A DNA stretch of 63,739 nt, counting the filler, from Folioceros fuciformis (Eukaryota): the NCBI GenBank assembly GCA_049999805.1. It is 7 parts of 6 records of this genome, joined end to end, with 100 filler letters (N's around TTAATTAATTAA, not from the genome) between each part and the next. Parts side by side here need not be neighbours in the genome. Positions count along the whole stretch, not along the records: positions 25,418 to 42,740 come from JBNGIO010006088.1; 6 more parts are not named here. One strand, given 5' to 3'. The notes beneath the pieces are model-generated. The model saw nothing but the letters and a program-made list of their open reading frames with translations. It was not told the DNA's origin and ran no database searches. Made by a program: the position numbers and the translations under genes. Positions 8,901-42,840 of this stretch are shown piece after piece. The first letter of the stretch is position 1. Each line of letters starts with the position of its first letter.

Positions 8901-10873
8901 ACCCTATTAGTGTCATCTGCCGGATAAATAGAAGAACTGTCCGAAGCAGAAGGTGCTCGAAATTGTGGTTCAGGTGCGTCACACACTCCAGCAGGAGGGC
9001 CGGCTGCACTTTGCAGGCCCGAGTACCTTTGAAGTCCCTGTAATTCTGATGCTACTCCGAATTTTTGCCTGATTAGGGACCCATTGCGCAAGTCTGCTGT
9101 GTTTGATTCAATTACTGAAAAACCTTGCTTCAGAGCACACGCATAAACAGCAGCAGTTTTACCAGAACCCACAGGTCCAGTTAGAAGGAGCGTGTTTTCC
9201 AGTCCATCATCCTCCACCAACGAACTGTCTGCATCACTGTCACTGTCATCCTGAAACCAACCCTTGTCATCATCATCGTCATCACCATCCTCATGCAAAC
9301 GTACTTTCCCTTTTCCAGATGACCTCTTGCCACTCAAAATCTTCTTCTGCCAAGTCTCCAGCCAGGTATCCAGAAACCCAACCTCCTTGCTATTGCCGCA
9401 AACACCTTCCGGGCATTTTGGCTGGTAGATGTCTGTCCACAACGAGTTGGTCCCAGAGTTGCCAACATCAGTTCTGTCCCCATTCTCCACACTGTCCCGT
9501 GATACCCTGCAAGCCCTCAGGAGAGACGCTCTAGTTCTCACACTCTCACGAGAGAAGCTGCTACCAGACCCATCCTCCCTTAACCACACCCCGTTGTCTG
9601 TACTCTGCATGTACTTCAAAAGTTGATCCTCCAGCTGCTCTGCAGAACAGCCTTGACAATCACCATACTCAACTTTCTCATCCGGAACAAAGAAAGAGTT
9701 ACTGAATTCACCAAGCACTTGATCCATAGCAGGCAGGGGAGACCTCTCAGTTCTACACAGAACAAACCCAGCGGGCATCTCACAGAGGTCAGAGCTTTCA
9801 AACTTTTCACAGCAGGTCTCAACAAAGCTAATCCCCCCCCAATTAAGCTGGACTGCTTCGGCATGCTCACTCTGCGTTACATGCAAAGGCGGGCTAGGAT
9901 CAATCTCCAGCTTGGAAAACGGCGGGCAAGGATCACTTTCAAGCTTTCCAAGCTTTCCCGAAACTGGAATTTGACGTTGAAAAAAGGGATGGAGTCTTCT
10001 CCCAGCATTAAGCCGGGCATTCTCCTCGGCTGCCAGCCTGCTCTCAGTCCTCAAACATACGGGCAAATGACGAGGGGCTTCCTTCCCATAATCATCTGCG
10101 ATCTCTACCTTCGCCACCTGGGCCCGTTTTGGCAAACCCCCATTCACCCCACCAATTTTCCGTCCCTTGACAACCACTGTCTCCTTCCTGATCCTCTTGA
10201 CCTTCCTTTTGGTGGTTGGGACAAAATCCAGATCCGAGACAACCTTCTCCTCCTCTGTCTCCTCATCCACAGTCAGAACTTCTTTCTTCTCCAGCTTCTG
10301 CCTGGCAGATGTAGACGCAAACAAACGTGCTCCCTGCTTCTGTTTTGGCAAACCCCCTTCCGCCCCATCCACCTTCCCTCCCTTTGCAACCGCAGTCTTG
10401 TGTTTGCTTTCCTTGCCCTTCCTTTTCGTACTTGGCACAAAAGCTGGATCCAAGACAATCTTCTCCTCTTCTACGTGTGCATCTGTAGCCACAACTTCCT
10501 TCTTCTGCAGCTTCTGCCGGGCAGACACAGGCAGGAAGAAACTCGCTCCCTGGGCCTGTTTTGGCAAACCCCCATCCGCAGTCTTCTCTCTGCTACTTCC
10601 CTTGCCCTTCCTTTTCGTAGTTGGAACGAAAGCTAGATCCGACACAATCTTTTCCTCCTCTGCCTGTGGACCTACAGCCACAAATTCCCTCTTCTGCAGC
10701 TTCTGCCTAGCAGATGCAGGCAAAAAGAAACTCGCTGCATCCGCTGGCTTAGCCGCCTCACCCACATCTTTTCTTGGCCTGCCTCGTTTTTTCTTCACCT
10801 CGGCAGGCTCCTCTTTCCCACTGCCGCTCCCTGCAGCCGGTACAGGCCACTTGAAGACCTTCGGAGCTGCCAT
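5936..10873 (-). CDS. ELG1: ELG1/ATAD5-like alternative RFC large subunit (AAA+ PCNA unloader), single coding exon
   Basis: Continuous ORF with LWTDIYQP, Walker A TGPVGSGKT, FSVIESNTAD, Walker B-like FLFEDVD, TKRPIILTSN and a basic N-terminus. First ATG (MAAPK) at 10873. Confidence 0.85.
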   Translation of the reverse strand: MAAPKVFKWPVPAAGSGSGKEEPAEVKKKRGRPRKDVGEAAKPADAASFFLPASARQKLQKREFVAVGPQAEEEKIVSDLAFVPTTKRKGKGSSREKTADGGLPKQAQGASFFLPVSARQKLQKKEVVATDAHVEEEKIVLDPAFVPSTKRKGKESKHKTAVAKGGKVDGAEGGLPKQKQGARLFASTSARQKLEKKEVLTVDEETEEEKVVSDLDFVPTTKRKVKRIRKETVVVKGRKIGGVNGGLPKRAQVAKVEIADDYGKEAPRHLPVCLRTESRLAAEENARLNAGRRLHPFFQRQIPVSGKLGKLESDPCPPFSKLEIDPSPPLHVTQSEHAEAVQLNWGGISFVETCCEKFESSDLCEMPAGFVLCRTERSPLPAMDQVLGEFSNSFFVPDEKVEYGDCQGCSAEQLEDQLLKYMQSTDNGVWLREDGSGSSFSRESVRTRASLLRACRVSRDSVENGDRTDVGNSGTNSLWTDIYQPKCPEGVCGNSKEVGFLDTWLETWQKKILSGKRSSGKGKVRLHEDGDDDDDDKGWFQDDSDSDADSSLVEDDGLENTLLLTGPVGSGKTAAVYACALKQGFSVIESNTADLRNGSLIRQKFGVASELQGLQRYSGLQSAAGPPAGVCDAPEPQFRAPSASDSSSIYPADDTNRVGGRSRKLTVFLFEDVDIIFEQDWGFFGALVKMVARTKRPIILTSNKRCPSVPPELRKLRREFKQPCTRTLVVQACMAAHAEGVACCPQLMECVIKECQHDMRQVLMLLQFWSQGRNSPSGLSCRSGIFSRDKNGLAGHCSGNDAYLLEGCRNSENLRTPEQGTNWPLKTRALGCDLQQQLRPLLLPLSFPCSLSQHVAGKISEAVRQLHLCAAFAGTLSSAQVQEVTSFQDKEESVGEPAGASAPRVAVCVSPAKSVRLLRALARSGQGCQGASNTSGAAEIAKCLNKQEAGCVGEESCESQLMPLHIGQSGKTVCWGKAPAQSLGIDQVCVNAMGRSMKAAHVRSTDCEYDDFQPTPPAPTRRRLILRLKIPPELQNSDTVNGAPPARRKRRLCEKIEKEETGCQQVGFPAPTVVADAEICIVSGDRVSGVVNRADTHRANSGDNRLGSGINVEPVETLTGGLEMQNLFQNSGNRFFVGDAVTDLTSWENEEASRNEPQAAGLHPQPVILSVHSALGEQVSDIVNCMSTDRASSGNDCLGLGINGESVETRTGGMEMQSLSQVSCKDLIVENAFRDLTSLDCEEVSRDFSQATGLYPQPVILSVQSASTTRNANPDVPCSEYRLSASTHAAQVATVIVDEKPSTREHCRLENCRDSRHQSPRLAAMECTHGGANLITHDDLDAPDVEANKNLIQSPVFDTHMAAEEKGFDSAAFPPCEDVYPLVSIALSSQQMEFDEAVLNTLRATCATSGEDMDESSVALGKPVDFVSQPALSLSRTTARLTDVMAIFDIISSYSVWEGAGRLWGFHLNSLEDKGAYLADLAVQLCLGHCSDLLQLGTKRKLAVNSTDTLQGLQRDLQLVPGTFDWLRTDANPCDPDHNLRKKARWGMLKGTVLNLVPARIHAAVTGSSLHDYSMTLARITKLEHRRQKTALAETGLGSRRSGRGFLHHFTNSIAEDSIAGLLSHSMFERGVSITPWMNQNQSRC

Positions 10874-11711
10874 CCCTGCACAGCAGATCCGAGGAGAGGG
10901 GACAGGGACACACAAACTCCCTCCCCCTCCACAACCACTAAGGTCACTCCTGCCTGGTGCATAGGCTTCAATTGACGCCCAATTCGGTACCTCGAGTCAA
11001 CGCTCCTCCCCACTCCAGTACGATTTTGCCTGTGCCCAATTCACACAATCGCTTCGTCCCGTATTCACCCCCAAGAAATTCATGTTCCACCGAACTTCCC
11101 CTCCTTCGATCCTCCTGGGATGGTGACACACGACAATTGCTCACTCAAAAAGCTCCCTCCTTGACCACCAACTCCTCCTGAAAAATGCACTATCACTAAG
11201 TTCTACGTCAGACCGGTCTGCACCTGAACCCACAAGGCCCGGAGTCCCAGAAATTCTGGACAAGCCACTTCTGTGAGGTTGATAGAAACTGGAATCCCCA
11301 AGGCCATGAGCAACCGCAGCTTGTCGCCATGAGACGGGGAATTTGAAAACCATGTTGCAGCTACCCTCGGTTGGGAATGATCGAATCACGCGGGAACGTC
11401 CAGTTCGAGGATTGAACTCAACACATTTGAATCCCGATTAAGAAAGCCCGTCTACTGACCAAGTAGAGAGACACACGTATGAAGATAAAGAATAGGTTCT
11501 TCTACTGTATCCTTACCTGCACCTGTTTTACCCCTGGGCTGCTGCTGGACGTGAAAGGCTGTGACTGCGTTCTGCCGACGAGCCGACAGTGTCAATCCAC
11601 GCAGACGGAGGAAATTCTCGTGATGTGCCGCGAATTCTGATCAGCTGAAGGGAGCCGTAGGTTTCGGATTCTGCGGGAGGAGGGTACGCAGCTAGGAACT
11701 CGCAGTGAAAC

Positions 11712-25417: not shown

Positions 25418-28400
25418 AACGTGCCCTAAAACTCAAGTTTACTGGCGTGTGTGTAAAAACGACTACGCGTCAATACTCCCCCTCGACAGTGACTTGGTTC
25501 TAGGTTACGGGCTTAGATGGCGTCCATGCAGCATGCGATTCTCCGCCTTTTCTTAAGTGTGTTATCAAGCATCTGGTGGTTGCTTCAATCGTGAGCCACC
25601 TGATTTCAGCTGTGAGTGACGATATTGAAAAGCTGGAGAAGACCGACATTCGTAGGCGTAGACGGGATTCAGAGAAATCCAAGCTGGAGAGGCGTTCTGG
25701 AACATCGCGTGCAACTTGGAAGGAAGTCAATATGGAGGAATTTATGCTAGCTATCTCAACACCCTTGCCTGATTTAGAAGCAACGTGGAGTCGAGGTTTG
25801 CGGGAATTTTGTTGTTGTAGAAGCCATAGCTGCAGGTTGTTGCTGAACTCCCCCTGTTGCTGCGCCGGGCTGTGAGCTATGAAGACTGATGTAGGCTTCT
25901 CTACTTATAAGGCCGATGCCCTGCACATGTCTTTCATGCAAGTGCTTCGGTAACCCCTTGGTCATAAGGTCTGCAGTGTTGTCGTTTGTGCTCACATACT
26001 TCAGTGCCACTTGCTTACCAGCTACGATCTGTCTAATAAAGTGATGTTGTATCTCAACGTGTTTAGTCCGTGCATGCAGCACAGGATTCAGAGTCATTGC
26101 AATCGCGGACTGATTATCGCATTGAAGCACTGTAGGCTGATGCTGCTCCTCCCCGATATCTTTTAAGAATTGTCTGACCCACAGAATCTCCTTGGCTGCA
26201 AGTGAGGTGACTGCATATTCTGCCTCGGTGGAAGAGAGGCATAAGGTGGGCATCTTCTTACACGCCCATGAAACACATCCTCCGTTCAGCATCATGCAGT
26301 AAGCGGCTGTGGATCGACGAGCATCTGGGTCTCTGGCCCAGTCTGCATCGGAGAAGGAGGTAAGTGTGAGCTTCCGTTCAGGATCACTTCTATAAAACAG
26401 GCCAAGTGTTTGGGTTCCTTTCAGGTATCTCAGGATGCGTTTAACATGCGTCCAGTGTGCCGTCCTAGGGTTTGAAAGGTATCTGGACGCAATATTGATA
26501 GCCTGAGCCACATCTGGTCGAGTCCAGATGGCCTGATACAGGATACTTCCTACGGCCTCACTGTAAGGTACGTTGACCATCTCCCTTTGCTCCTCAGGTG
26601 TAGTTGGGCAATTTTCTGCTGATATTTTATCACCTAATGCTATGGGGGTTGCAACAGGCTTTGCATCCTTGAGATTGAAGCGTTCCAAGAGCTGCTCGAC
26701 GTAATGTGATTGATGTATGAAGAACGTGTGATTCTTTGAGTCACGCTCAAACTGCACGCCTAGGGCGTACTTCAGCTGTCATAGATCAGAGACTTCATAC
26801 TCCTTAGATAAAAGGTCTTTGATCTTCTGTATGTAAGTTGAATCGTTTCCGAAGATGAAGTTGTCATCGACATAGAGTGTCATAATTGCGAACGTCTCCC
26901 CCTCTCTCAAGAGGTAAACACTAGGATCAGCAGATAGTGGAGTGAATCCGCATTTCTTCAAATACCGATCTATGGTCTCATTCCAGACCTGAGCCGACTG
27001 CTTGAGGCCATACAGAGACTTCAAAAGTCGGTAGACCTTCTTGCTGTCCTTCACGAACCCTGGTGGCTGCAACATATAAATTTCCTCGTTCAGGGTCCCG
27101 TACAAAAAAGCTGTTTTTATGTCAACTTGATGAATGTCGAGGTGGTAATGTGCTGCGAAAGCCAAAAGAAGTCGGATGGAAGTCGACTTGACGACCGGAC
27201 TGTAAAGACGGTTCTCCTCATAATCGAAGCCGGGAGTCTGTGTGAATCCTCTGGCGACGAGCCGTCCTTTGTATCTGGATACAGTTCCGTCTGGATTAAG
27301 CTTCCTCCGAAAGGTCCACTTACAAGATATGGGCTTTCTGCCCGGGGGCAAATCTGTCAATTCCCAAGTCTTATTAGCAATGAGGGAGTTATACTCATCC
27401 TGTGCAGCGGCTGTCCATTCTGAGGATTTAAAGGCTTCTTCAATTGTGAGTGGGACTCCCTGCATTTCAATAGCCGACAGTGCTTGGTTAAGAGCCATTT
27501 GAGCTTCCTGCTGGTGAGTATCAACGGGTGTGTCAGCTGTGGGAAGCTGCTTTTGAGTAAGGGTATCACCTGGAGTGTATGGAGGTTCCTTCCATTCATC
27601 ACGAGGAGGCCTATAGCGAGATGACCGTCTGGGAAGTTCCCGTTCAGGTTCGACAGCTAGTGGGGAAGGTTCAGGGATACCTGGGATGTCACGTACCTTT
27701 GGCTGCTGACTTGGAAGAAGGGTTTAAGTGGGCGGTGATGTCTGTACAGGTGCTTTAGAGTGAAGATCGGAGGTAGAAGATTGATGATGTACCTCTTGAG
27801 ATTGTGAGTCATCGGGATCATATTGGGCCCCCTCAAGATCAAGAGGGGAATCAGCAAAAGAGTACCCGTAAAGACTGGCGTTAGGCAGGGGGGAAGAAGT
27901 GTGGGTACTGGTGAGGTAATGGGTAAGTACACTGGTTTCGTTAAACTGGGCACTTCTTGAGTAAACGACCTGACGACTGTGAGGGTCAAATAACCGGTAT
28001 GCTTTGACGTGATTTGAATATCCTATGAATAGGAGCTTACGACCTTTGTCATCCCACTTGCTACGGTTATCATCTGCAATGTGAGCGAAAGCGGGACTCC
28101 CAAATATACGTAAGTGTGAAATTCTGGGGGAACGACCTGTCCATCTCTCATAAGGTGTAGTGTTTGGGAGATCTTTAGTTGGGAGTCGGTTCTTAAGATA
28201 AATGGCGGTGGAGGCTGCCTCTGCCCAGTAGCCCTTAGTCAGACCTGCAAGTTTGAGAAGAGACCTGGAAATTTTTAAAATGGAACGATTGAGCCGTTCT
28301 GCGAAAGGGTTTTGTGATGGGGTATAGGGGACAGTTATCTGCCTAAGGATGCCTTTAAGGTTGCAGAAAGACTGGAAGGCTTCGCTAGTGTACTCACCTG

Positions 28401-30981
28401 CATTGTCGGTGCGCAAGGTGCCGACTAAGAAACCGGTTTGGCGTTCTACGGTGGTGAGAAACTCTTGGAAGTAATCGAAGGCTTCACTCTTGTGTTTCAA
28501 AAAATAGATGTGAGTGTACCTACTCCACTCATCCATAAAAGTGAGGAAGTAAGAGTGTCCTCCGAAGGAGACTGTACTCATAGGACCGCAAATGTCAGAG
28601 TGGATGATTTCCAAAAGTCTTCTAGCCCTAGTAGGTTGAGGATCTGAGAAGGGAAGCTGATTCAGTTCAGTGTACTTACAAATTTCGCAGAAGAAATCTT
28701 GTGACACCTGGAGTTTAATTGGGTCTCTGTACATTGAGGAATTAGTAAGGGATTTTAGATACCTCGGGTTGATGTGACCGGCACGGCAGTGCCATAGCAG
28801 GGAGTTGGTTTTATTTTGTTCTGAAGAATTGTTTACCACAAGAGATGAGTGGGTTTGGATGTTGAGCAGATATAAATCATTGTAAGGTAGGCCATGAGCA
28901 AGGGCAATATGGTCAGGATCTTTGACATGGCTGATGGTACAGTGGTTACCGACAAATGTGATTACGAGGTCATGCTCGGTTGCTAACTTCCGAACTGACA
29001 GCAGGTTCTTTGTCATCGTCGGGACATGCAGAACTCCGTTGATGAGAAGGGTTTCTCCATTTGCAAGCCGTAGTTTGATATCTCCTAACCCTTGAATGGG
29101 TAATGCACTGTCGTCTCCAAGTAGGACGTGCTGGTCAGATGTCACTTGGTGATATGTGTCGAACATATCGATACTACTACAAATATGCGTCGTGGCTCTT
29201 GAATCAAGGAACCATCGGTGTAGATCTGTTCTGGTAAGTGTAAGGCATACTGCCAATATGGAGCATGCTGCGGGCAGCCTGTTGATGGTAGTGATATGTG
29301 ATTCATTCCTGGGATTGTCTCGACGAGGTTCGCCTGCCATCTTCTTACGGCACTCGTGTTCATAATGCCCGATAATTTTGCACCAGTTGCATGCTCCCTT
29401 CTGTAGTCTGTTTTGTTGTTGCCTCGGACCTGCATTAAAAGAGGGTCTCTGAGACTGACCAGCAGGTTTCCGTGAGGAGAAACTGCCAGGTCTGAAACCA
29501 CCCCGCCTTGCACCACGGCCTCGTGATGCAAACAGCACTTGATTGGCTCCAGTATTGGAACGTGAGGTGCCTATGCGGCTGGATTCTTCTTCGAGGAGGT
29601 CTGCAACAACTTCTGAAAGTGTGCAAGGTGCCGAAACTCCTGCTTGGGCTGCCTGTCGAAGTGCCGTGTTTTGAGAACTGACGAACGTTCTGTATGAGCC
29701 AGGCAATGAGGTTAGAAGAGTAACCGCTGCCTGCAATTCTGTGAGAGTAGTGCCGCTGGCGGCCAACTTGGCTCTTGCGGATCTGAACTTGTGTATGTGT
29801 TGCTCAACGCTGTCAGATTCTTTCATTCTCAATGAGTAGAATTGACGTGTTGCATTTACAAGTGACATTGAGCTTTGGGCTTGGAACATCTCGTTGAAGG
29901 TGTTCCAAATACCGTTAGAAGTTGCCTAGCCGTGTGTATGTTGTAGCATGTTCGTATCGATTGCTGAAATAAGGATGTTGCGGGCACGTTTGTCGCTTTT
30001 CTCCCATGCTGCAATCTGGTCATGAGTTGCAGGCGGAGTTGATGTTGTGGATGGCTTGGGACATGTGCCATCGACGATGCCCATAAGGTCGTGCTCCTCA
30101 AGCAAGGCTTGAATTCTGATTTGCCATATGTCGTAGTCGCTCCCTGTGAAGCGATCGCGGTCTTTGAATTCCACCTTTGTGGTGTTAAAGGTTAATGTTG
30201 GGTTGGCTGGAGTGCTGACAGGTTGATGATGCGTTGCCATTACGCGGCGGCGGTGCCTGGTGCTGCTGGCTTGTGTTGCTAGGGGATCGAAATCGAACAT
30301 ATGCTGCAAGGATCAACAGATTAGTGATCCAGGTAACCTACTTGCGCTTACAGAAATTGTACAGTTCTCGGTAGAGGGCTTCCAGTTGCGACTCTATGCA
30401 GTTCAGCTGAATCTTTAGATACTCAGGACTTGCGACGACTGCAGAAGGAAAGGGAAGATGCGTAGGGTATGTGGAGAATTGCGCTTGAAGGTGACTCGAA
30501 ACTGGTGGGCGTGGTGGTGCTAATGCAGGTCGCGACTGTGGAAGATGGGATGGTGTCCTGTGCGCGGCGGCTGAGCAATCGTTGCAAAATTTTGTGGCTT
30601 GTGGAGCAAGTCTGCCTTGTGGCGCGAAGCACGCTGGATGGCGGCGCCGAGGCATGCTGAAATCGGAATTTCAAGTCAGGGTGTTGCAGAGTACGCCGAC
30701 CTTCATGTTGCGAGAAAGCCGGGTGGAGGCGAAGCCAGGCGGCGGTGAGCCAACCGGCTCTGATACCATGTAGATACGGTAATAGTAATAATCTCATATT
30801 AGAAAGGGGTATTAAGTGCCCTTATATAGGCTTACATAAAGCGGTTCGTAACTGCTGCTATATAAGTGTTTTAATAAAACTACTTAAACTGCTTAAACTG
30901 TTTTCTTATATCAGCCCTAGCGAAACGTGCCCTAAAACTCAAATTTACTGGCGTGTGTGTAAAAACGACTGCGCGTCAATA
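25418..30981 (-). mobile_element. Ty1/Copia LTR retrotransposon 'Copia-A', near full length
   Basis: 5' LTR 30769-30981; tRNA-iMet PBS TGGTATCAGAGC at 30757-30768. Gag with CNWC..GH...C knuckle, protease WFLDSRATTHIC, integrase (HSDICGP, LRTDNAGEY), RT (LYVDD), RNase H (SDADWA). PPT at 25476-25484 and a 3' LTR remnant at 25418-25475 cut by the linker. Nonsense codons at 29926 and 26779 plus a frameshift near 27720. Confidence 0.95.
30338..30655 (-). CDS. Small upstream ORF of Copia-A between PBS and gag (105 aa, C-terminal leucine-zipper-like segment)
   Basis: ATG-initiated ORF MPRRRHPACFAP...EYLKIQLNCIESQLEALYRELYNF. Both ends are homologous to the same position in Copia-B. Confidence 0.55.
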   Translation of the reverse strand: MPRRRHPACFAPQGRLAPQATKFCNDCSAAAHRTPSHLPQSRPALAPPRPPVSSHLQAQFSTYPTHLPFPSAVVASPEYLKIQLNCIESQLEALYRELYNFCKRK

Positions 30982-31164
30982 CCATTTGACAGCTGCAATG
31001 AGACATTGCCGGTGCCTGCTACAGCCAGGGCGCTATCGTCTCCCAGGAGAACATGTTGGTCATCTGGTGAGTCGTGATCTAACTCAAAGGCTTCCTTGCT
31101 ACTGCAAATGTGCGTGGTTGCACTGGAGTCCAGGAACCATCTGTTTTCATCTGTTTTGGTGAGT
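30982..31164 (-). mobile_element. Copia-B protease segment, continuation of gag 39123-40143
   Basis: Reads LTKTDENRWFLDSSATTHICSS...VLLGDDSALAVAGTGNV. Joins in frame to ...VLAICLTL once the DNA transposon and one TGAGT are removed. Confidence 0.9.
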
Positions 31165-31478
31165 ATCATGGTCTAACCCAGACGAGCGGATTCCACAAAG
31201 CCCCTTTTGCGCATTTCACATTTGTCGTGATTCACGTTCCTTATCTACTTTTGATCTAATTTCACAAACAATAACACCACCGACATGTATCCAAATATTT
31301 TGGTTGCTGCAAAGGTCAATAAAACCAAATTTACTGAAAAAAATAGTTTGAGTCTTCTATATGAAACTTGATATTTCGCAACGCTAAACTTGTGGTGCGC
31401 CAGTCAATTGACGCACAAATTTTCCAAAGTACTTCAAGTTTACGTTTATACCAATTTCAAATTAAGTCAAGTTTATTC

Positions 31479-34271
31479 TCAAACAAAAAAAGGGTCGTCC
31501 TGGTTGGCTTTGGAGTCCACAACTACATATAAATCATTCATCCGTTGTGCATCTGTATTGCCAAAGTCATTAGCACCCACTCGAAACACCGAGAAGTTGG
31601 GGTCCTCTGTAGTTTGAGGCGGCAAAGTGCAATTCTTATCCCAGACAGTGATGGCGTAAAGGTCTTCCGCAGGCTTATCATCAATTTGGTATATGACCTC
31701 TCCTTTCTTGCTCAACATAGTGAACACCATTAGTTTGCGGTCCACGCTCCCATCACCGCACACTTCCTTCGCCCAAAACTTTGATGGGCCTCGCGTAAAC
31801 GACTCTATCGTAATCTCCTCATCTAGGTCAGGCAAAGACCCTAGCCCGATAATCCGCTACATAATATATGAAGTGTACCTGACATCCACATCGATCGCAA
31901 CCGCATGCCTTCCGTGCTGAACAGCACTTTGGAGAAGAGATCCCAGACAACAGCGTATAGGGTCGTCTGACAAGAAAGGCCTTCATTTCCAGTACATTCC
32001 TTTGAATAACCTGGTATTTTACCTTTGAGTTACTCACCGGAACCTGAAAATCCAACAGCCCTACGTCCATATCCGCTGCCGCCAACTTCTGCTTCTCCTC
32101 TTCCATCCTTTTCCAGTTTTTCTCCGAATAAATGAAATCCTGGAATGGCTTCGGTAGGGACTCCAAGTCTGCTATCTTTGAAGGTTTCTACAACCAGAAT
32201 GGTACATGTTAGTTTGGCTACCGATAAAGCTACTTCAGCATGAACAGACATGAGTGTGCCAGTAGATCGGCGCACTGGGGCCTGCTGGAGCTGCAGTGCG
32301 CCGGTCTACCAGTGCACTGCTTTCGGCTAGAGTCCAGTGCGCCGGTAGACCAGCGCACTCTTGCCGGAAGCTGCTCGTGTGCGCCGGTCTACCGGCGCAT
32401 TGGGGCTGGCTCGGGGCCAAGTGCGCCGGTAGACCGACGCACTCCTGCTTAAGGAACCGGATTAGTAACACGAGAAATGATCGCAAAAACTTACCACTTT
32501 GGCGAAGGCTATCTGGAATTTTAAGAGATGACCATCTTCTGTGTGCTTCGGGTAGATCTCTTTGGCCTCTTCAAAGGTGCCGCACTTCATTGCCATTTGC
32601 AATGCATGTTGTATCAGGTGGATCTTCTTCGTCTTCCCCACTTCAGTGTCCATGTCCCACAATTGAAGCTTTCCCTGGATGACCTTCTGCATCACCGCTA
32701 TCAACATCTCCTCTCCCTTCACACCTGTTGGGACGCCTTGGAAGGCTCTCCATGGCCTGCCCTACATCGCTCCTGGCCTCCTGCTGCTGTCTTCGGTAAC
32801 CTGGGTAACAGAACTTTGCAGGGTAGAATCTCCTGTCTTCCATTTTGCCTTTGCCCTCTTTGTTGTCTCGGCTGTTACCATGCTCTTCTTCCCACATTCT
32901 AACGATCATGTCCACATTGTCCCAAAGAACACCTGAGCATCTGGCTACTTGACATGGCAAGGTTTGCCTGTCCACCATCTTCTACACCCAGTTCTGTGTC
33001 GTGGGGATCTCCACCTTCGTCAGTCATCCCTAGCAACCTGTATAGGTTAAACTTCCACTTGACTGGTGGCTTCTCTTCCCCTAAATGATTCCTGAAAAAA
33101 ATGTCGAGCTAGTCATGGATGTATCGCACCTACTCAATGAACCCCATCCTCTTCCACTTGTCTGCATAGACATTGTGGTTGACAGCGAAAACCCTCATCT
33201 CTTCCTCTGTCAACCCAGCATACACGTGCCCTTGCATCCATTCATACTTATCTTCTGCGGGGAACATCTAATGGAGTTTCTGCATGGCTGCAAAGCAGTG
33301 GTTGCCCCCTAAGACTCCCATATGGTACTGTTGCGCTGTGATCCTGTCCAAGGAAACCTCTTCCTTGCTCACTACTTGCTTAGGATCAAGCATACACAGG
33401 AGGGGCAAGATCCCTTCCTTAACAGAGCCAGCCTGCATCTGCCTCACTAAGCTTTTCATCCAAGCTTCGTCTACCAGCCTTATCTGTGCGTCAGAGGTGA
33501 TGAAAGATGCAGGATACAAAATATCCACATGTAGATCAAACGTTGTGGACCTAATCCTCTTGGCATGGGCCTTCTTCCTTATTCCATTCAGGTAGTCCTC
33601 ATCCTGTGCTAACCTCTCAAACCTCTCTACTACCCAAGTTAGCTCTGGCTGCACCTGCTGCACTACGCCGCCCTTCCGTCTCTTCTGCTTCGCTGCCTGC
33701 CCTCTTGTTGTAGTGCCTGCTGCTTTTCACCGCTTCGGCTGCGGAGATGTGGCTATGGAGACATACAGGAGGTGTAACATCGGGGTCAGCGGTCAGTGTT
33801 TTAGCAGTAGAATCAAGGTAGCCAAAAACAAACCCACAGCAAAATGCTCAGCTTGCACACAACAGCCTCACCGGATGTCATCTTCCGCTGTTTCGCAAGA
33901 GATGCTGATGCTCTCCTCTTCCGCTGCCCTAGTGCGCTGGTAGACCGGCGCACCTGGGTCACCCTCTTCCGTGGTGGAGTGACCTCAACTGGGGACTCCT
34001 CAGATGCATCTCCCTCGCAGGAATTGCGGGGCATCTCTAGAGCATCATTCAGACTGTCTTCAGCTGAGGAGTACTGAGCCATCTCCTCGACTTCCTCCTC
34101 TTCACTGTTGTGTTGTGGAACGTATGGTGCCTCCTCTTCTGAAACCTCAGGCTGCATATGAGGCATCTCCTGCTTGTCTTTCACGAATCCCACTGCACGA
34201 GTGTTGAGGACTCCGAATTCTGCTTGCACCGGCTTCCGCTGCCGCTCCCCAAGCCGCGCCACAAGAGCCAT
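31479..34271 (-). pseudogene. Transposon cargo gene with a ParB/Srx-like N-terminal domain; spliced, decayed by stops and frameshifts
   Basis: Acidic/basic disordered N-terminus, then IRLVDEAWMKSLVRQMQAGSVKEGILPLLCML...YHMGVLGGNHCFAAMQKL...HVYAGLTEEEMRVFAVNHN, which follows the ParB-N pattern. An in-frame GT-AG intron at 32188-32494 joins FAKV to KPSKIADLESLPK. Confidence 0.65.
32253..32443. repeat. Array of five 24-bp palindromes AGTGCGCCGGT-NN-ACCGGCGCACT, period 41-42 bp
   Basis: Copies start at 32253, 32295, 32336, 32378 and 32420, separated by 17-18-bp non-identical spacers. Confidence 0.92.
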
Positions 34272-34393
34272 ATTCTTCAGCACCGCGTCTCCTACGCACC
34301 GCAAAACTGTTCGACAAAACTGTTCTCCACCCTAATTAGCGTAAAAAAAAAACACAAAAGTTAGGGTTTAGGATAATTCTCAGTAATGACATT

Positions 34394-35230
34394 TTAACCT
34401 TTTAAGCTGATAAGACCACTTACATCCTTCAATAAAAGACAACCTCTTAGCGCGTTTTTCATCCACAGTGGTTCGCATCGGCGAGGTATGGCTTTCGCAA
34501 CATTCACAACCACTAAACTATGACTATCGTAGTCATCCATAATGTGGCTTGGTGGGTGTTGGGTGAGGATGAAATTCAAGTGAGTTTCGTCGTCTTCACC
34601 GTCCACTGATGCACAAAGAATCCATCCTGCCCTTCGTGCTTCGTGCTCCGCCAAGCCTTGAAACCCATTCACCCACAGAGCAACAAGAGGAATCCACAGC
34701 AAGTTCAAGTCATCAGGCTCATCTTCAGCTATCAAAAACCATTCCTTATCAGTGTTGAATCTTTTGGCCAAAGTGTCTTCTAACTTCTTCAGTCTCAATC
34801 TCTCTACAAAGTTGTAGGCATTCGGAATGTTGTAATTCTGATTGCCTCCTGTATTGCCTCCGTGATTCACATGCAGCAGAATGTCATTCAGAGGTCCTTC
34901 ACTTGCTTTTGAATTGGATGCTCTCATGCTCCCACTTAAGTTATCCTTTCTTCCTCCGGCGGTCTGGGCAATGGGAGTAGTTTCTTTGCCAGCGGGTGGT
35001 GTAGGTCGATGTCCATCCCTATCGGTGTTGTGACCAGACGACGCTCGCGAAGTTGCTTTCCCCGGATTCCTTTGCTTTCGTACTCGTGGAAGCGCCTTAA
35101 CATCCCTGTCCACAAGCTGAAGTTTGTTGACGACCAGATGCCATTGGTACATGCACCGGATTTGTACAAGAAAGAATTCGAAAACGAACTGTTCAGCTGA
35201 AACCAAATATCCACTGTTGCCAACCGCCAA
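34394..35230 (-). CDS. Uncharacterised transposon-internal ORF (up to 278 aa)
   Basis: Open frame inside the element. The C-terminal ~140 aa look globular; no motif recognised and the start is uncertain. Confidence 0.4.
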   Translation of the reverse strand: MAVGNSGYLVSAEQFVFEFFLVQIRCMYQWHLVVNKLQLVDRDVKALPRVRKQRNPGKATSRASSGHNTDRDGHRPTPPAGKETTPIAQTAGGRKDNLSGSMRASNSKASEGPLNDILLHVNHGGNTGGNQNYNIPNAYNFVERLRLKKLEDTLAKRFNTDKEWFLIAEDEPDDLNLLWIPLVALWVNGFQGLAEHEARRAGWILCASVDGEDDETHLNFILTQHPPSHIMDDYDSHSLVVVNVAKAIPRRCEPLWMKNALRGCLLLKDVSGLISLKG

Positions 35231-35787
35231 TGCATTTATAGCGTGATGGAGGTCGTATCAGGCGGAGATTCTTGCTGAACAGTTAGTTCTATTTTTACTC
35301 AAACATTCAAATCTAATTAGCGTGATGATGGTCGTTTCAAGCGTCAATTCTCGCTGAACAGATATTTTTATTTCTGGTCTAAGGTTCACATTGCATTAAA
35401 CACTCGTGCTTCGGGACTTGGTGGAGGGGCATTGTTACAATGCTGCACATTTGAAAGCCAGCCAAGCCGAAGGGTATACACACACTGTTCTTTCATGCTT
35501 CCATGGCAAACAAACCTTCATCATCGTGTCATGGTATGGAGAATTTTTGTGAAGATAGAAGCGACGAAGGTTTGGAAGAACGAACGATGCTTTGTGATCG
35601 TGGATTCACATGACTATGATTTGCTTCTGTTTTACTAATCTGTGGATGATTCTTATCCCCAGGAGACCATCCTTCCATACATCAATTTGAGGAGTTGAGG
35701 TCGTCGCCAATCCGTCTAAGTCTTCTGGACAAAGTTCATAGTTCTCTAAGCCCGTCATCTCCGCGACATTCATTTGTAGGCGCAGTG

Positions 35788-38595
35788 ATGAAGACTACAC
35801 CTCTACGAGGAAACGCCGATGTCCATAGGTTCTATGGAGGGAGTGGCGCAGAAGGTTGGGGCGTAGGTAGTGGAACACATATGCAGGAAGTGAACGATTC
35901 CATGAATGTGAATGAAGAAGGGCATTGCAGTCAAGAGAGTTCGGACTCAAGACATACACCTAGCCAGCGGTCGACCTTTAATCAGAAGCCAGCGTCGGAG
36001 TCAGTGATCAAAACACCCTTAGATCATCGACGATGTTGGCGGAAGAGACCTTCAACAATACCAGAGGCTAAGTGTTTAGAGCTTCGCATTTCTGTTGGTT
36101 ATAGAAAGATATGCTATGCGAGACAATGTCTGAGACTGCTTGGTAAACCAGGATTTAGAGAGTTGCGATATCGTTTTCTAAAGATGAGTAGGACAGAAAA
36201 AGAAACCTTTTTGCAGGCACATTTTGATGTCGAGAAGACTGAGAGCACACGTCCAATCGCGGAACCATTCTTACTTGGGTTGGGGAAAATAAGGTGTTGT
36301 CGAGACGCTTTCAGAAGAGTGTACTGTATTGGTTCAAATAGATATGAGGGAGCGAAAGAACGTGCTTGTGGGAACATTGTGTGGTCCGAAGCTATCCGCT
36401 CAGAGCCACAGGCTCCAGGGTACGTCGCTGCCGCGTGCGTATGGATGGATCAATTGTTTCTCCTCATTGCAGAGCGTATGCCAAATGTTGAACTGTACCA
36501 TTTGCCCAACTCTTACATAGAGGAGGAAATTTTCATGGGCTACAAGCGGCAAATGAGCTGAGCAGAACAATACAACATTTCGTACTCTTACTTCCGTCAA
36601 CTATGAGCCTCGCACTTCCCAAAAGTGCGCATTCCAAAAACGAACAGATTTTCCTTGTGGAAATTAGTTCTTTGGGTTATGTTTTTCAATTCCATGATGT
36701 TTGTTGCACATGTTCCTAGTCTGGTGCTGTTTAAGGTGACATAGGGAGTGCGCCGGTCTACCGGCGCACTCTCGGCGGGTCAGGACTAGTGCGCCGGTGT
36801 ACTGGCGCACTCCCGCCGGGTGAGGACAAGTGCGCCGGTCTACCGGCACAATTTTCCAGATGCATGAGAAAAGTGCACCGGTACACCAACACACTTCTGC
36901 AGCCAAAAGTTAGTGAATGCTGACTTAAGTTCCCGTTCATGGAAGAGGGTTTCGAAAGCGACTTGAAAGTACATCAACAAAGACTGAAGGCACAGCGAGA
37001 GAAGAGTATCAAGCATCGTGTAAAATGCTATGGCGATCCGGCTAAATACCTGGGGTTGTCTATAGATGGAATGGATCAGCAAAAAACTCAGATTCCTCAT
37101 TTTGTGCGACTTCCAAAGGACTTGGCAGACGTTGACCTTATTCACGTCCATGTTGTAGGATACATGGTGTACAATAGCACAATGTCGCTTGAGCTCTTCA
37201 TAGAGTATGAAAATATATGGAACGACACGAACTTAACAATTTCTATTATCCATAATGTGATTCATGTGTACATTGGACTTCTTCCAGGAGTTATGTACTT
37301 GCAGTTGGACAACACAGCAAGAGAGAACAAAAACGCTTTGCTGTTTTCATATCTGAATATGTTAGTGGAGAAAGGAATCTTCAAGAAGGTGAAGGTGGGG
37401 TTTTTACTAGTGGGCCACACGCACAACCACGTGGACCAGATGTTCTCCTGGTTTTCGATAGCTCTGGGAAGGAAAGAAGCACTGATTTTACCTACACTCA
37501 TCGCTGTTATGTAGAGTTCTTATACACCTATGCCAGCAGTGCATGAAGTGAAGGAGGTTCCAGACTTCCGGCAATTTGTGTGGCTTATACCTTACGGAAA
37601 AGCCGGTTATCAGAATGTATCAGCTGTTCACCACTGCACAATATTTCGTTCCAACACCAGTTCAAGATCACAAGGGAGAGCCGAGGTGAATAGAGCTTTA
37701 TAACAGTGATGTGCGGGAAGCAGTATTGTACAGACGAATTTTGGTCACCAGATGAGGGTATCGAGTTTCTGAAGCATATTCCGGACACAGATATCAAAGC
37801 TGCTCCATTTTTACATCTACAATCTAGGAGCAAAAAACAAAGGACAGTTTCGGACAATGTCGTTGAATATCATCTAGCACAAATCATATCAAAACTGGAG
37901 ATGCGATTACAACAACACTTAGGACCAAGCGAGAGCTTGTGGTGGGATGGGTTTTGGGTAGAGCAAGAGGCTATCGTGCATTCTATAAACTCCGGTGTAG
38001 ACAGAGACCTTGATTCTCCTTGGCGGTAGTATAATCGGGAGGCGGCAGAAATATTGAACACACCCGTTACTGTACCAGACGAAATGGTTGTTCACAATCC
38101 ACGCATCCGTGAGATTCCTAGAAGAAACATGTATGTGGGGGCATACCGTAAGGAGACGGACCTCAATGATGACCGCGACAATTTGAACGGGGATATAACC
38201 GAAATAGAAAAAGGGCATATGATTGCAGTCCCTTGCAAGACTGACGAAGACAATAGGCTGTTTTGGATTGCCAAAGTCTTAGAGGCAGATATTACATGCG
38301 AAAACCATATGTCAAAGTGCACTAGTGGGTAACCAAATGTTCATATGCTTTTGAGGGTCGTTACCAAGAAGAGATGATTTTACCACATGAAGCTCCGCCA
38401 AGAGGGTTACGTGGCGGTCGCAGACACAGGTCAAGCAGAAGACTTAGGAAGCATATAGATACGTTATTCATTGAAGACACGTTTATTCTAGCATATGGAT
38501 TTGACTTAACGCGCCAAAAACAGCTTCCCTCCCAAACGAGGACTCTCAATCGTGAACAGGATACACTGCCGCCTGAAAATAATGAAAACTTGTAA
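35788..38595 (+). pseudogene. DDD-type transposase of the DUF7869/Sola-like group, disrupted
   Basis: Cys-containing N-region (CCRDAFRRVYCIG), HFPKVRIPKTNRFS, core motifs LSIDGMDQQK, YLQLDNTARENKN and FLLVGHTHNHVDQMFS (36939-37514), and a C-terminal KGHMIAV...LFWIAKVLE segment. Several premature stops. Confidence 0.8.
36747..36895. repeat. Second array of four 24-bp palindromes, period 41-43 bp
   Basis: Copies start at 36747 (perfect), 36788, 36829 and 36872. They lie in a non-coding interruption of the transposase gene. Confidence 0.9.
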
Positions 38596-39122
38596 GACTT
38601 TTAGATAAAAGTGTTAAGTACAAACAAGTATGATAATTATTGTATATAGCGCCGGTCAAGTTCCGTTTTCCACTTGACATACATGTGCCTTTAGCAGTGT
38701 GCGCTGGTCAACCAGCGCACTCTCGCTTGTTCCGTGCTGGGTCACTGGTGTTCTATTTCGCCACTGTTTCTGAAAAATGCATATAGATATCAACATGTGA
38801 TAATTTTGAGGAATAGGGTCACCTGATATGAGGTATCGCTCAAACACCTACGACTTTACATGGAATACGATGACAAGTGAATTACGTGATACCCGCCATA
38901 TTATGAGGTTTTGTCATGTATTTGATTGCAATGACACCTGCAAATTTGCTAGTACTTTGGAAACAATTGATGATTAAGTTTATACTCAACACTCTTTTAG
39001 GCCACATTTCAGGTTCTCCTGACAAAAACAAGGGAAAATGTGGATATCTGACACGAGTTTTCAGCGTCAAAATCTCGCGAAGCCCAAAATGGCGGAATAC
39101 ACCCTTCTGGGTTAGACACTAT

Positions 39123-40904
39123 TGAGTGTTAGGCATATTGCTAGAACAGAGGTTGGGGAAGTTGACTTTGTGCTTGTATAGTGTGACTCGTTACGAGGTG
39201 GGTCGCGACGAGGTTTGCCAGCGAGCTTCTTCTTACATTCATTCTTGTAGTGCCCAGGAATGCGGCACCAACTGCACGAGCCCTTGGTTCTGCGGTCGAA
39301 TTGTTTGTCACCACCGGAGGATGGGTGAGAGGAAGGTCTTCGCATTCCAAAATTGCCACGGCCGCGTCCTCTTTCCGTGAATAGCACGTGAGTGCTAGAT
39401 TGGGTTGTCTTGTGACTTGCAAATCTGCTGGATTCCTCCTCGAGGAGAGCCGCTACTACCTCGGTGAAGGTGTAGTTGGGTGTATGTCCTGCTGCAGTTG
39501 TTTGGATTGCAGCACGGATTGCTGAATTCTGTGCGCAGATGACTGTTCTGTATGCAGGTGGCAAGGAGGTTAAGAGGGCAACTACAGCCTGCAGTTCACA
39601 TATCACAGTACCTCTTGAGGCTAGCTTTGCTCTGAGGGACTTGAACACGTTCACGTGCTGCTCAACACTATCCGAATCTTTCATTATGAGGGAATAAAAT
39701 TGTCTCGTAGCGTTGATGAGGGACATGCTGCTTTGAGCTTGGAACATGTCTTTAAAAGTCTTCCTGATTGCATTGGAAGTGGCTTGACCATTCGTGTGTT
39801 GCAGCATGCTTTTGTCAATGGTATAGATGAGGATAATTCTAGCGCACTTGTCCTTTTTGGTCCAAGCTGCGATTTGGTCAGAAGTTGTAGGAGGAACAGA
39901 TGAGGTTGATGGTATGGTGATTGTACCGTCAACGATCCCCATGAGGTCGTGCTCCTCAAGGAGCATAGTGATGCGCATTTGCCATATGTCATAATTGCTC
40001 CCTGTGAAGCGGTCTCGGTCTCTAAACTCTAATTTGGTTGTATTGATGATGTTGGTGGTCATTGCTATACGCTTTGCAAGACGGGTGAGTTTCTTAGCAA
40101 TCAGGTTGGTTGTGTGCTCACCTAGTGGATCATAACGAGGCATTCTTCTCTTTAGAGTGCTTCGGATTCATTGTTTGTGTGTACTGGTAAATTGGAGATG
40201 GCAACGAGAAGTGCCTCCATCTGCGACTTATCAAAACTAGCTGACTTTTAAGGTAATCTTCGGAGGAGGTAGCAAGGTTGCAAGGTGCTGGAGAGATCGT
40301 GCTGCTGTAGCGTGCAAGAAGGCTGTTGCTCTGTGGATTCTTGAAACGCTTCTTGCTTCAGGAAGATAGTATGGTCGGATGATAGAGGTGTCTCTGCAGT
40401 AGTTGTAGGTTCGCGTCCATGGTGGCATCACTGGTGGTGTGCGATGAGGCTGTGTGAGTGCGATGAGGCTGTGTGAGGGCGATTCGGCTTGGGGCATTTA
40501 TGCTTGGAGCATAGCTCGCCGGGGTGCGACGCTGAGGCATGGTAGATGGCCTAGGATCGTCAAAGCTTGCCTCCGTTGCTCCGGGTGCGTGCCATTACGG
40601 GTGGCTGAGAAGAGCAAGGTGCAAGGCGCGTGCGCGAAGCCAAAGGGGGCAGGTCTCTTCAGCTCTGATACCATAAACTGGAAGCAAGATTTATGGAAAG
40701 GATAATTACATTGATGATCAAGGGCTTAGTTATACAATTGTTTTCTGCAGTTATAACTGCTCGCTCTGATAACCGTATCTAAGTTATAACTGCTGAGGTT
40801 AAGTATAGTAAGTTCAGTCTACCATGTTTAATTAATGCCAAGTATCCATTCATGTGAACCATGCCCTAATCAACCAGTGTAGTCGGCGCATGAGGATTTC
40901 AACA
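39123..40904 (-). mobile_element. Copia-B 5' part: LTR, PBS, upstream ORF remnant, gag
   Basis: PBS TGGTATCAGAGC at 40662-40673; putative LTR 40674-40904 (TGTTG...TTTA). Gag (40143-39123) is clearly related to Copia-A gag (DRDRFTGSNYDIWQ, CSWC..GH...C). Confidence 0.88.
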
Positions 40905-41936
40905 GCTCGTGGCTTGGGGCCACTCGAGGCTAGACTACCCTTAGAGAGGATCGAGCTCATAGCTAGTCAGTTTTCCACACTAGCTGCATACATGAATGGT
41001 GTTAAAAAATAGCAAGCTTTGATGCCGTGCAAGGAACCCAACACCATAGATTCGATACCCATGCCCACATTTAAAATTTTCTATTCTAAACTTTCCCCAT
41101 GTCCTCAATGCTAGCAATTTGGCCATTTTCGTGGATGTCTTTGACTTTGTTGCAGGAGAGGACAAAGGTTGTTAGTAGGGGATAGAGGTTCTCAAGAGAG
41201 GAATGGAACTTGCCATCCGTGATCTCAGTTATGCATTATGGGTCTACCTGAAGGAATCAACATCAAGGAATTTGGCCTTCCAAGGATAAACTGCTGTTGT
41301 TGCAGCAGTTATGGCAAGAGCATTGTAGGATAGGGCTGTAGTAGACTATTCTTGTGTAGTGTCAACCGGCCGTGCAAGCAACAGCCGCTCTAGCATACAC
41401 ACTCATGGATTGGGATCCGGATCTACTGGAGATGGGTGGTGGAACAGATGACGGAGCTCACTCTTCTTCCACACTGCCTGTAACAAATGGAGTGCAGCCT
41501 GTAATTATGCCCTAAGGCCTTGCAAGGGGGGAATAGTCTCCAACATCCTTCACTTTTTGAGCAGAAGAGAACAGAGCTTCTCCAGTCCTGATCAAGGAGA
41601 AGAAGGGGACTTGTCAGCGCAAAGTACATAAGGAGTTGAGGATGAGCTGGTTCAGCACCCACTAAGGGGACATAGCATTTCTACATGTACTCCAAGAGCT
41701 CCATCGAAACAAGGTCAGACTGAGGCACGTCAGTTACATATTCGATGCTGCCAACCAAGAGATCGACTGCCCGACCCAAGCGTCGTTGCATAATCAAACT
41801 GTAAAGATGTTGGGCCCGCTTATTTAGGTCTCTCAGGGGTGAAATATATGCGATTATCGGTTATGTTACACGAGAGTGGCATATACTTACATAGACACGT
41901 ACATAAATGGGCATGCCACGTGGAACGAACGTGGGG

Positions 41937-42461
41937 CTCATAGTCATGGTGAGATGCTAAGGCTAAGAGGATCCCGAGTGAGGTTATTTTAAGTACGGGG
42001 CTAAAGGTTTCGTCGTAGTCAAAACCATATTTTTGAGAGTATCCCTTTACTACTAATCTAGCTTTGTATCTTTCTATGCTCCCATCAGCATTTAACTTAA
42101 TCTTAAAAGTCTACTTATAACCTAATAGTTTTCTATCCTTAGGTAAAGAAGTTAAGGTCCAAGTATTATTAGCTTGTAGGGATTCTAGTTCTGACCTGAT
42201 TGCCTGTTTCCAGTGTTTCTTTGGTGGGCAGGTGATCGCCTCTTGATAGCTAGCAGGAACAGATTGATCTATTGCTGCATTAAAGCAATAAGCTAGTGTA
42301 TTCTTAGGGTCTTTCCAGTTAGTAGGAGAGTACCTATTTATCTTGCCTGCGTTAGAACGCTGAGGACGTCTTCCTCTAGTGTTGTCAGTATTGCCGGGTT
42401 GTTGAGAGTCCTCGTGGGTGTCCTCATAGTTAGGGTCTTCATATATGGCATTATCTAGCAT
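41937..42461 (-). mobile_element. Degenerate Copia RT fragment
   Basis: VPASYQEA...WKQAIRSELESLQANNTWTLTSLP, followed by [32 protein letters not shown]. Confidence 0.8.
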
Positions 42462-42840
42462 ATTTGTGTTGAGTTATCGAGCTCTATATGAGCTAAACTC
42501 ATGTGGTGTTAGTTATCCCAGTTGGGTTCATACTAGACTAGTTCTAGTTATTAGTGAACTTAGGATAGTGTAGATTATCCCATATTGAACCTGGAAGTTG
42601 TGTAGCCCTAAATGTACTACTTAAATGGAGACCTCGGACCTCCATAGTAAGACAGTGGTGATGTGTATTGTTTTCATGGTTGTGATCACCAATACCACCC
42701 TCTCTTCTCTCCTCTCCTCTCCTACACTTACACGTAGACTNNNNNNNNNNNNNNNNNNNNNNNNNNNNNNNNNNNNNNNNNNNNTTAATTAATTAANNNN
42801 NNNNNNNNNNNNNNNNNNNNNNNNNNNNNNNNNNNNNNNN

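Follow-up and report, generated by a model that had tools for sequence, protein, structure and literature searches.

A dead copy of a ParB-like gene, probably a transposon accessory gene, in an inverted-end element of Folioceros fuciformis

The window analysed here is a stretch of 63,739 nucleotides (nt) from Folioceros fuciformis (GenBank assembly GCA_049999805.1), consisting of seven parts of six records joined end to end with 100 filler letters between them. On its minus strand, at 33085..33789, in the part taken from record JBNGIO010006088.1 (positions 25,418 to 42,740), lies the broken remnant of an N-terminal domain predicted to have the ParB/sulfiredoxin (Srx) fold. We read this stretch, with a probability of about 0.8, as part of a dead transposon accessory gene, namely its N-terminal domain; this copy is located within an inverted-end element of about 7.9 kilobases (kb) that also bears a DUF7869 gene. 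An earlier reading of the same DNA, hereafter called the original prediction, had recognised the ParB/Srx motif and had proposed that its GGNHC box was once GGNHR, the arginine having been lost by deamination.

The translation quoted in that prediction was confirmed on the minus strand, where IRLVDEAWMKSLVRQMQAGSVKEGILPLLCML is followed at some distance by YHMGVLGGNHCFAAMQKLH, a stop and MFPAEDKYEWMQGHVYAGLTEEEMRVFAVNHN, and the codon coordinates were also correct. The span that it had given, 33170-33490, was rightly placed but covered only part of the domain; alignments to related proteins span 33789..33025, the latter end being reached by relative P0003. The open frame on this strand, 33726..33085, corresponds to 214 residues read through three in-frame stops, all TAG, at residues 153, 199 and 206. 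A HMMER scan of 1.84 billion proteins with this read-through query yielded 37 relatives (E ≤ 1e-3, best 6.3e-22), and a word-indexed profile search yielded 23, of which those with a name were all hypothetical proteins of Adiantum ferns. Moreover, a family profile built without the query matched the six-frame translation of the window at a single place, 33474..33109 (116.2 bits, E = 2.4e-37), which we took as the core of the domain. Because of these 37 relatives and the independent profile match, the gene remnant is considered real, far beyond chance. All eleven residues that are near-invariant in the family have been kept in the query (Y134, G140, G141, H143, A147, L151, G171, L172, E176, H184 and N185). 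A word-indexed search of longer proteins gave no match from 553 candidates, and no related locus was confirmed among 184 candidate stretches from metagenome contigs or 21 from viral contigs. A weak tblastn row had pointed to a second, degenerate ParB-like domain in the frame 34394-35257; this candidate was rejected, the family profile having no match there at E ≤ 10.

The AlphaFold2 (AF2) model of the query, based on 47 aligned sequences, had a predicted local distance difference test score (pLDDT) of 87.0 and a predicted template modelling score (pTM) of 0.77. When this model was submitted to Foldseek, all 31 rows among the matches listed were Noc, PadC, ParB, sulfiredoxin, KorB, SerK, SbnI or one of two structural-genomics proteins. 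Structure alignment against 48,161 chains placed eight chains at Z-scores of 6.8 to 9.0, the next row being at 4.4; these were SerK, PadC, plant Srx, KorB, SbnI, pNOB8 ParB-N, human Srx and Atu1540, all of which we take to be members of the ParB/Srx fold. The model of an intact relative, P0015 (354 residues, pLDDT 89.2), aligned with PadC at Z = 10.8 and with the whole chain of KorB at Z = 9.7, over 192 residues. It gave 12 Foldseek matches at E ≤ 1e-3; the ten listed were ParB or Noc chains with two domains, the alignments extending across some 280 columns, and ParB in complex with cytidine diphosphate (CDP) was matched at E = 1.2e-5. On these models, the ParB/sulfiredoxin fold of the N-terminal domain is well supported. 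The fold assignment of the original prediction was thus upheld by the structure searches of both models, but not by the search with hidden Markov model profiles that it had proposed, which returned no ParB match from Pfam or NCBIfam.

In the query model, GGNHC was located at the turn between a strand (residues 136-140) and a helix (142-151), which we take to be the place of Box II in ParB and of the GGCHR motif in sulfiredoxin. The family also shows a conserved helix followed by x-L-P (P108 in 33 of 37) and an H-N pair (H in 38 and N in 40 of 44) where ParB has E-N; both presumably correspond to ParB boxes, as judged from the position of the motifs.

Intact relatives appear to consist, from the N-terminus onwards, of the ParB/Srx-fold domain, a helical domain resembling the DNA-binding domains of KorB, SopB and ParB and, in some of them, a DNA methyltransferase of the beta class, whose motif IV is D-x-P-Y-G and whose motif I is F-x-G-x-G. 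The helical domain of P0015 (residues 131-293) aligned with the DNA-binding domain of KorB on its operator (Z = 5.1, 106 of 114 residues), with SopB (Z = 4.0) and with ParB on parS (Z = 3.5). The Pfam model N6_N4_Mtase (PF01555) matched P0002 and P0018, and precomputed matches to it exist for P0018, P0050 and P0052. A D-x-P-[YCF]-G motif was found in 10 of 55 relatives and a motif of the F-x-G-x-G type in four. As judged from these sequences, a ParB-like domain and a DNA methyltransferase are joined in one protein in some relatives. One of them, P0002 (1825 residues), exhibited two complete ParB-like and methyltransferase units with a long linker rich in Ala/Pro and Glu, and probably represents two adjacent copies fused by gene prediction.

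In the window, the gene continues beyond the N-terminal frame, in other frames of the minus strand, to about 31785. A helical, KorB/ParB-like and putatively DNA-binding module, the fold of which was observed in the model of relative P0015, occupies 32471..33084 in three frames; relative P0012 aligned with its residues 110-142 to 32981..32883 and with residues 187-282 to 32758..32471 (38.5% identity, E = 2.6e-15), and the two frame shifts were derived from such alignment coordinates of relatives. Further on, candidate remnants of the methyltransferase tail lie at 31785..32124 on the same strand, and its catalytic middle is missing. A methyltransferase profile made from 11 segments of relatives (search space 127,474 residues) gave two collinear best matches in the window, profile positions 9-67 at 32124..31951 and 175-250 at 32048..31785, and residues 326-381 of P0018 aligned to 31943..31776 (E = 1e-3).

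This copy is dead: it has four in-frame stops and two frame shifts, and the core of its methyltransferase is lost. The most upstream stop is a TGA at 33727..33729, which bounds the open frame and is crossed by the alignments to relatives P0010 and P0006. The three TAG codons were compared with sister copies, using Logan contigs of three DNA runs from one organism (X1, X2 and X3) placed on 32462-33790 at a likeness of at least 80%. A total of 360, 363 and 215 contigs, respectively, were placed, most of them 80 to 95% alike; because hundreds of diverged contigs were recovered at this threshold, the gene belongs to a many-copy family in this organism. A further run, presumed to be of RNA, contributed no contig.

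The TAG at residue 153 (33268..33270) was confirmed as a former CAG, as originally proposed. On the plus strand, the entire X1 depth at position 33270 (297.3 of 297.3, from 16 contigs) has G, as has most of that in X2 (248.1 of 268.2), which reads CAG in the gene; the mutated C stands in a CAG (CHG) context and not in a CpG. At residue 206 (33109..33111), position 33111 on the plus strand was C in 208 of 217.7 (X1), 268.8 of 280.2 (X2) and 70.6 of 70.6 (X3), so that sister copies have GAG, in agreement with the glutamate found in 20 of 39 relatives; the change from GAG to TAG is a transversion and not a deamination. At the TAG of residue 199 (33130..33132), where relatives have lysine (27 of 43) or arginine (11 of 43), no sister-copy difference was present among the 40 listed. 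Since every stop within the domain is a TAG, a reading of TAG as a sense codon was considered and rejected: a nearby copia frame is broken by TAA and TGA, and at two of these three sites the sister copies encode an amino acid. In run X3, nearly all differences from the window over 32462-33790 were G>A (114 places) or C>T (65 places), often at full share; this run looks like a converted library (bisulfite- or enzyme-treated) rather than a record of true variation.

The whole mobile element, of about 7.9 kb, spans 31171..39117 and was delimited by its inverted ends and by the copia retroelement that it splits. Its left terminal inverted repeat, at 31171..31194 on the plus strand, is 24 nt long and 83% complementary to the right one, at 39094..39117 on the minus strand. 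The 12-mer GTCTAACCCAGA, which forms the tips of this repeat, has just two occurrences in the window, in opposite orientation, at 31171 and 39117; of 100 shuffled sequences, not one reached this number. On one side of the element lies a Pol_BBD fragment of copia (30945-31172) and on the other a copia gag (39112-40167); since these two parts are in the right order on the same strand, the element is concluded to have split a copia. The insertions are nested, the element lying within this second copia of the region.

Opposite the ParB-like gene, on the plus strand of the element, a broken DUF7869 gene was found at 35929..38571 (Pfam PF25273, E = 3.1e-38). It aligned in four blocks to relatives of 870 to 1076 residues, the first block crossing a stop at 36559-36561. 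These relatives are multi-copy in Ceratopteris, Adiantum and Riccia (ferns and a liverwort). Across 28 of them, the motifs IDGMDQ, QLDN..ENKN and GHTH...DQ were invariant, with the residues D, D/N and H-T-H-x-x-x-D-Q. From these D/D/E-type motifs and the many copies, we infer that DUF7869 is an unclassified DDE-type transposase, and the gene is presumed to have played this role here. A DUF7869 profile had no match among the sequences of solved structures, and no paper naming DUF7869 was found in the literature searched.

The element also contains a 22-nt palindrome, GTGCGCCGGTnnACCGGCGCAC, with 10 matches in the window at up to three mismatches (0.00 expected), all within 32254-38720. Five copies form array A (32254..32442), where they are 41-42 nt apart and their centres alternate between AG and CT; the fold of this array as single-stranded DNA had a z-score of -7.9. 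Three copies, 41 nt apart, form array B (36748..36851), in a gap of the DUF7869 alignments at 36667-36932. Single copies were located upstream of the ParB-like domain (33932..33953) and after the DUF7869 gene (38699..38720). Because the proteins of relatives are continuous at both array sites, the arrays are regarded as lying in introns or as insertions.

The odds are about even that these palindromes are unrelated to the ParB-like protein, being intron filler, a foldback repeat that landed there, or sites of the DUF7869 transposase. Introns or insertions would fit the continuity of the relatives, which have 18 residues in place of 275 nt in the DUF7869 gene and are likewise continuous across about 320 nt of the ParB-like gene; one array stands 1.1 kb and the other 2.3 kb from an end of the element, and no other locus ties the palindrome to the gene. 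Indeed, 19 metagenome loci with the exact pattern had no match to the family; they were mostly G+C-rich, with one perfect match each and an overlapping near-match in two, and were taken to be probable chance hairpins. On the other side, all 10 copies in 63.7 kb sit at four places of a single 7.9-kb element, the period of 41-42 nt would be close to four helical turns, and tandem palindromes are what ParB-type proteins bind, the same pairing being described for red-algal elements in a preprint (bioRxiv 10.1101/2025.02.11.637652). If our reading of an accessory gene is right, the helical domain of intact proteins would bind the DNA of their own element, perhaps at these palindromes 41-42 nt apart, the N-terminal domain would pair two subunits, and the methyltransferase, where present, would mark the element DNA with N6-methyladenine (6mA) or N4-methylcytosine (4mC).

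Several observations weigh against reading the stretch as a ParB-like accessory gene of a DUF7869 transposon. No Pfam or NCBIfam profile, PF02195 included, called the domain ParB: the query had no Pfam match at E ≤ 10, no ParB model was matched by the 37 relatives (E ≤ 0.01) or by 47 members of the family (E ≤ 1; beyond this, only DUF6551 in two members, E = 0.034), and NCBIfam gave nothing relevant among 24 members. The PHROGs profile phrog_1033, 'ParB-like partition protein', matched one of 24 members (E = 1.1e-3). Among the sequences of solved structures, phmmer found no match and a profile search gave a single, unrelated one (E = 0.035). The Foldseek E-values of the query model were modest (best 5.5e-4), and the Z-scores of 3.5-5.1 for the modelled helical domain fall in the range that chance may produce for helical bundles. 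The methyltransferase remnants of the window were weak, with E = 1.6e-3 for the first and 0.067 for the second of the collinear matches. The ends of the element showed no target-site duplication. The link between the two genes comes from this single locus, and none of 94 DUF7869 proteins carries a ParB-like domain. Finally, the role of the palindromes as binding sites is putative.

A ParB-like family that escapes the standard ParB profiles is one that domain-based surveys miss. In a protein-language-model search, relative P0003 was placed near unnamed eukaryotic clusters, near a fungal DUF3723 cluster (0.95; 11 of 30 matches) and, at rank 25, near a ParB_N cluster (0.91). From this proximity, DUF3723 may be ParB/Srx-like as well; no Pfam match to DUF3723 was found among the relatives and members, and no paper was found that mentions DUF3723 and ParB together.

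The cysteine codon of GGNHC is TGC at 33295..33297 (read as gca on the plus strand), and the next stop is the TAG at 33268-33270, as the original prediction had stated. The codon stands where Box II has its arginine. That prediction held that it was formerly CGC and that GGNHR was once a potentially active nucleotide-binding site, broken in this copy by a CpG deamination. To expect an arginine after the histidine was reasonable, because Box II is GxxR in canonical ParB-fold proteins, and its replacement by alanine is reported to have abolished nucleotide binding in those tested (PMC12704722). One CpG transition suffices to turn CGC into TGC, and deamination is plausible as a background process. 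The CpG observed/expected ratio of the locus was 0.40, against 0.60 for the window, with 1.33 for TpG+CpA; other copies of run X1 differed from the window copy by C>T at 101 and G>A at 81 places, versus T>C at 43 and A>G at 46; and the neighbouring TAG is indeed derived from CAG.

The composition of this column in the family makes the proposed arginine very improbable. When 53 domains of 52 relatives were aligned to the family profile, the residue after the invariant histidine was serine in 27 domains, threonine in six, cysteine in five, leucine in four, glycine in two, and phenylalanine, valine or isoleucine in one each, with six gaps; arginine was found in none of the 47 aligned. Cysteine is native to P0002 (second domain), P0005, P0006, P0026 and P0032. 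Moreover, no sister-copy difference was found at 33295-33297 among the 40 listed (depth 329 in X1 and 307 in X2), while the private changes of the two TAGs, at 33270 and 33111, were listed at near-full share. As far as these copies go, arginine was not seen at this codon, which largely settles the point against its deamination; 508 weaker differences stand outside that list, and a minority CGC variant may exist among them. On this sequence evidence, the cysteine of GGNHC is probably the ordinary state of the family rather than a deaminated arginine, which was probably never present.

Judging from the alignment, the whole family is without the Box II arginine, and its Box II appears to be GG-x-H-[S/C/T]. 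Because of this lack, nucleotide binding by the family is doubtful, or would depend on a lysine or arginine four residues after the cysteine column, which 37 of the 48 domains have; methionine takes its place in the window copy and in three relatives. The single codon flagged in the original prediction thus carries no weight as to nucleotide binding, being the normal state of the family in a dead copy, and it is the family-wide loss that raises the question of whether the fold still binds a nucleotide.

That the gene encoded an enzyme of the sulfiredoxin type, or a canonical ParB for the partition of chromosomes or plasmids, rather than a transposon accessory protein, is scarcely credible: sulfiredoxins and ParB are both among the fold matches, but the column before the histidine, which in the sulfiredoxin motif GGCHR holds the catalytic cysteine, was T in 18, N in 13, S, G and Q in three each, and Y and D in one each, with cysteine in none of 43 relatives; relatives bear a putative DNA-binding domain and a methyltransferase; a ParA-binding-type motif (LG-R/K-GL) occurred in one of 56 sequences (P0033), inside the domain and not N-terminally; hundreds of diverged copies exist in one organism; and no sign of a partition system was seen, a ParA gene in the window not having been searched for.

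Returning to the transposon accessory gene, the observations can be joined into a more far-reaching proposal, to which we give little credence: in ferns and other plants without seeds, DUF7869 transposons would carry a complete module of a ParB and its sites, and would mark their own DNA. A KorB-like protein would be loaded at the palindromes of the two arrays, which are spaced by four helical turns. Serine or cysteine would replace the nucleotide-binding arginine beside the invariant histidine, so that clamping or spreading might proceed without cytidine triphosphate (CTP) or by a new chemistry. The protein would then carry the 6mA/4mC methyltransferase along the element, and the transposon would write the mark on itself.

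Genes of this type have been described in algal transposons. The Sola1 element of Ectocarpus (Sola1-1_Ec32) has a gene of 1104 residues encoding a ParB-like domain and a DNA methyltransferase opposite its transposase (PMC12477816). That paper predicts a 4mC or 6mA activity for the protein and suggests that it binds and modifies the element that encodes it. The present gene resembles it in domain content and in its arrangement opposite a putative transposase, but differs in that the host there is a brown alga, while the named relatives here are from ferns, and in that the present copy is a dead one with a gutted methyltransferase; the two were compared by description.

A ParB-like domain found by HHpred only (best match 7BNR) is described for PAG3, a Plavaka gene of the red alga Bostrychia, with adjoining inverted-repeat tandem arrays; PAG2 has PF01555 (bioRxiv 10.1101/2025.02.11.637652). 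In both cases the ParB-like domain goes unseen by standard profiles (InterPro for PAG3) and was reached by remote methods only, and 7BNR was also among our Foldseek matches. Likewise, inverted-repeat arrays stand beside the ParB-like gene and a PF01555 methylase is found within the element. The superfamily of the transposon is different, however, and according to the preprint, PAG3 combines ParB-like and 2-oxoglutarate (2OG) oxygenase domains and PAG2 combines PF01555 and SET in separate genes, whereas the ParB-like and methylase parts are fused in relatives of the present gene.

Fusions of a ParB-CTPase fold with an N6_N4 methyltransferase are common in phages and prophages (PMC12704722). They share with the present family the order of domains and the methyltransferase family PF01555. 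In contrast, their ParB part is detectable by Pfam and has kept the GxxR arginine, whereas here the Pfam ParB models miss it, and the position of the arginine is taken by Ser, Cys or Thr. A tblastn search of P0018 against 50,697 phage records returned only stand-alone methyltransferases, aligned to the methyltransferase part (E about 9e-3).

KorB of RK2, ParB, Noc and PadC resemble the family in the predicted fold of the N-terminal domain and possibly in the helical, putatively DNA-binding domain that follows it. They differ from it by an identity of only 8-18%; the present family lacks the Box II arginine, has the ParA-binding motif in one of 56 sequences and comes from a eukaryotic host. Sulfiredoxin shares the core fold (plant Srx, Z = 8.3-8.4) and the Gly-Gly-x-His turn at the start of a helix, but the family has neither the cysteine before the histidine (0 of 43) nor the arginine after it (0 of 47) and consists of multi-domain proteins.

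In the literature searched, two algal papers on ParB-like accessory genes of transposons were found, and no report from a fern or bryophyte; ParB is absent from the available portion of a preprint on 4mC in Marchantia (10.1101/2021.02.12.428880). Transposon accessory genes that combine ParB-like and methyltransferase parts are already described in algae, as are inverted-repeat arrays next to ParB-like accessory genes; the novelty here lies in the lineage of the host and in the absence of the Box II arginine throughout the family. A ParB-type DNA-binding module joined to a bacterial-type methyltransferase, hitherto reported from brown, red and green algal transposons, would thus also occur in a many-copy element family with fern relatives.

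The window as a whole looks eukaryotic and rich in mobile elements, and its G+C content is 47%; it includes reading frames of copia and gypsy elements as well as a kinase and a glycosyltransferase. A copia polyprotein was observed in a single frame at 25774-29925 on the minus strand, broken by one in-frame TAA and one in-frame TGA stop. On the same strand, 5936-10996 forms a frame of 1686 residues without stops, in which a match to an RFC1-like AAA+ lid was weak (E = 1.9e-5, below the Pfam cut-off). Between 20655 and 62625, 848 N were counted in 17 short runs; several of these are pairs of 44 with 12 bases between them, next to retroelement frames, and were read as masked or withheld sequence.

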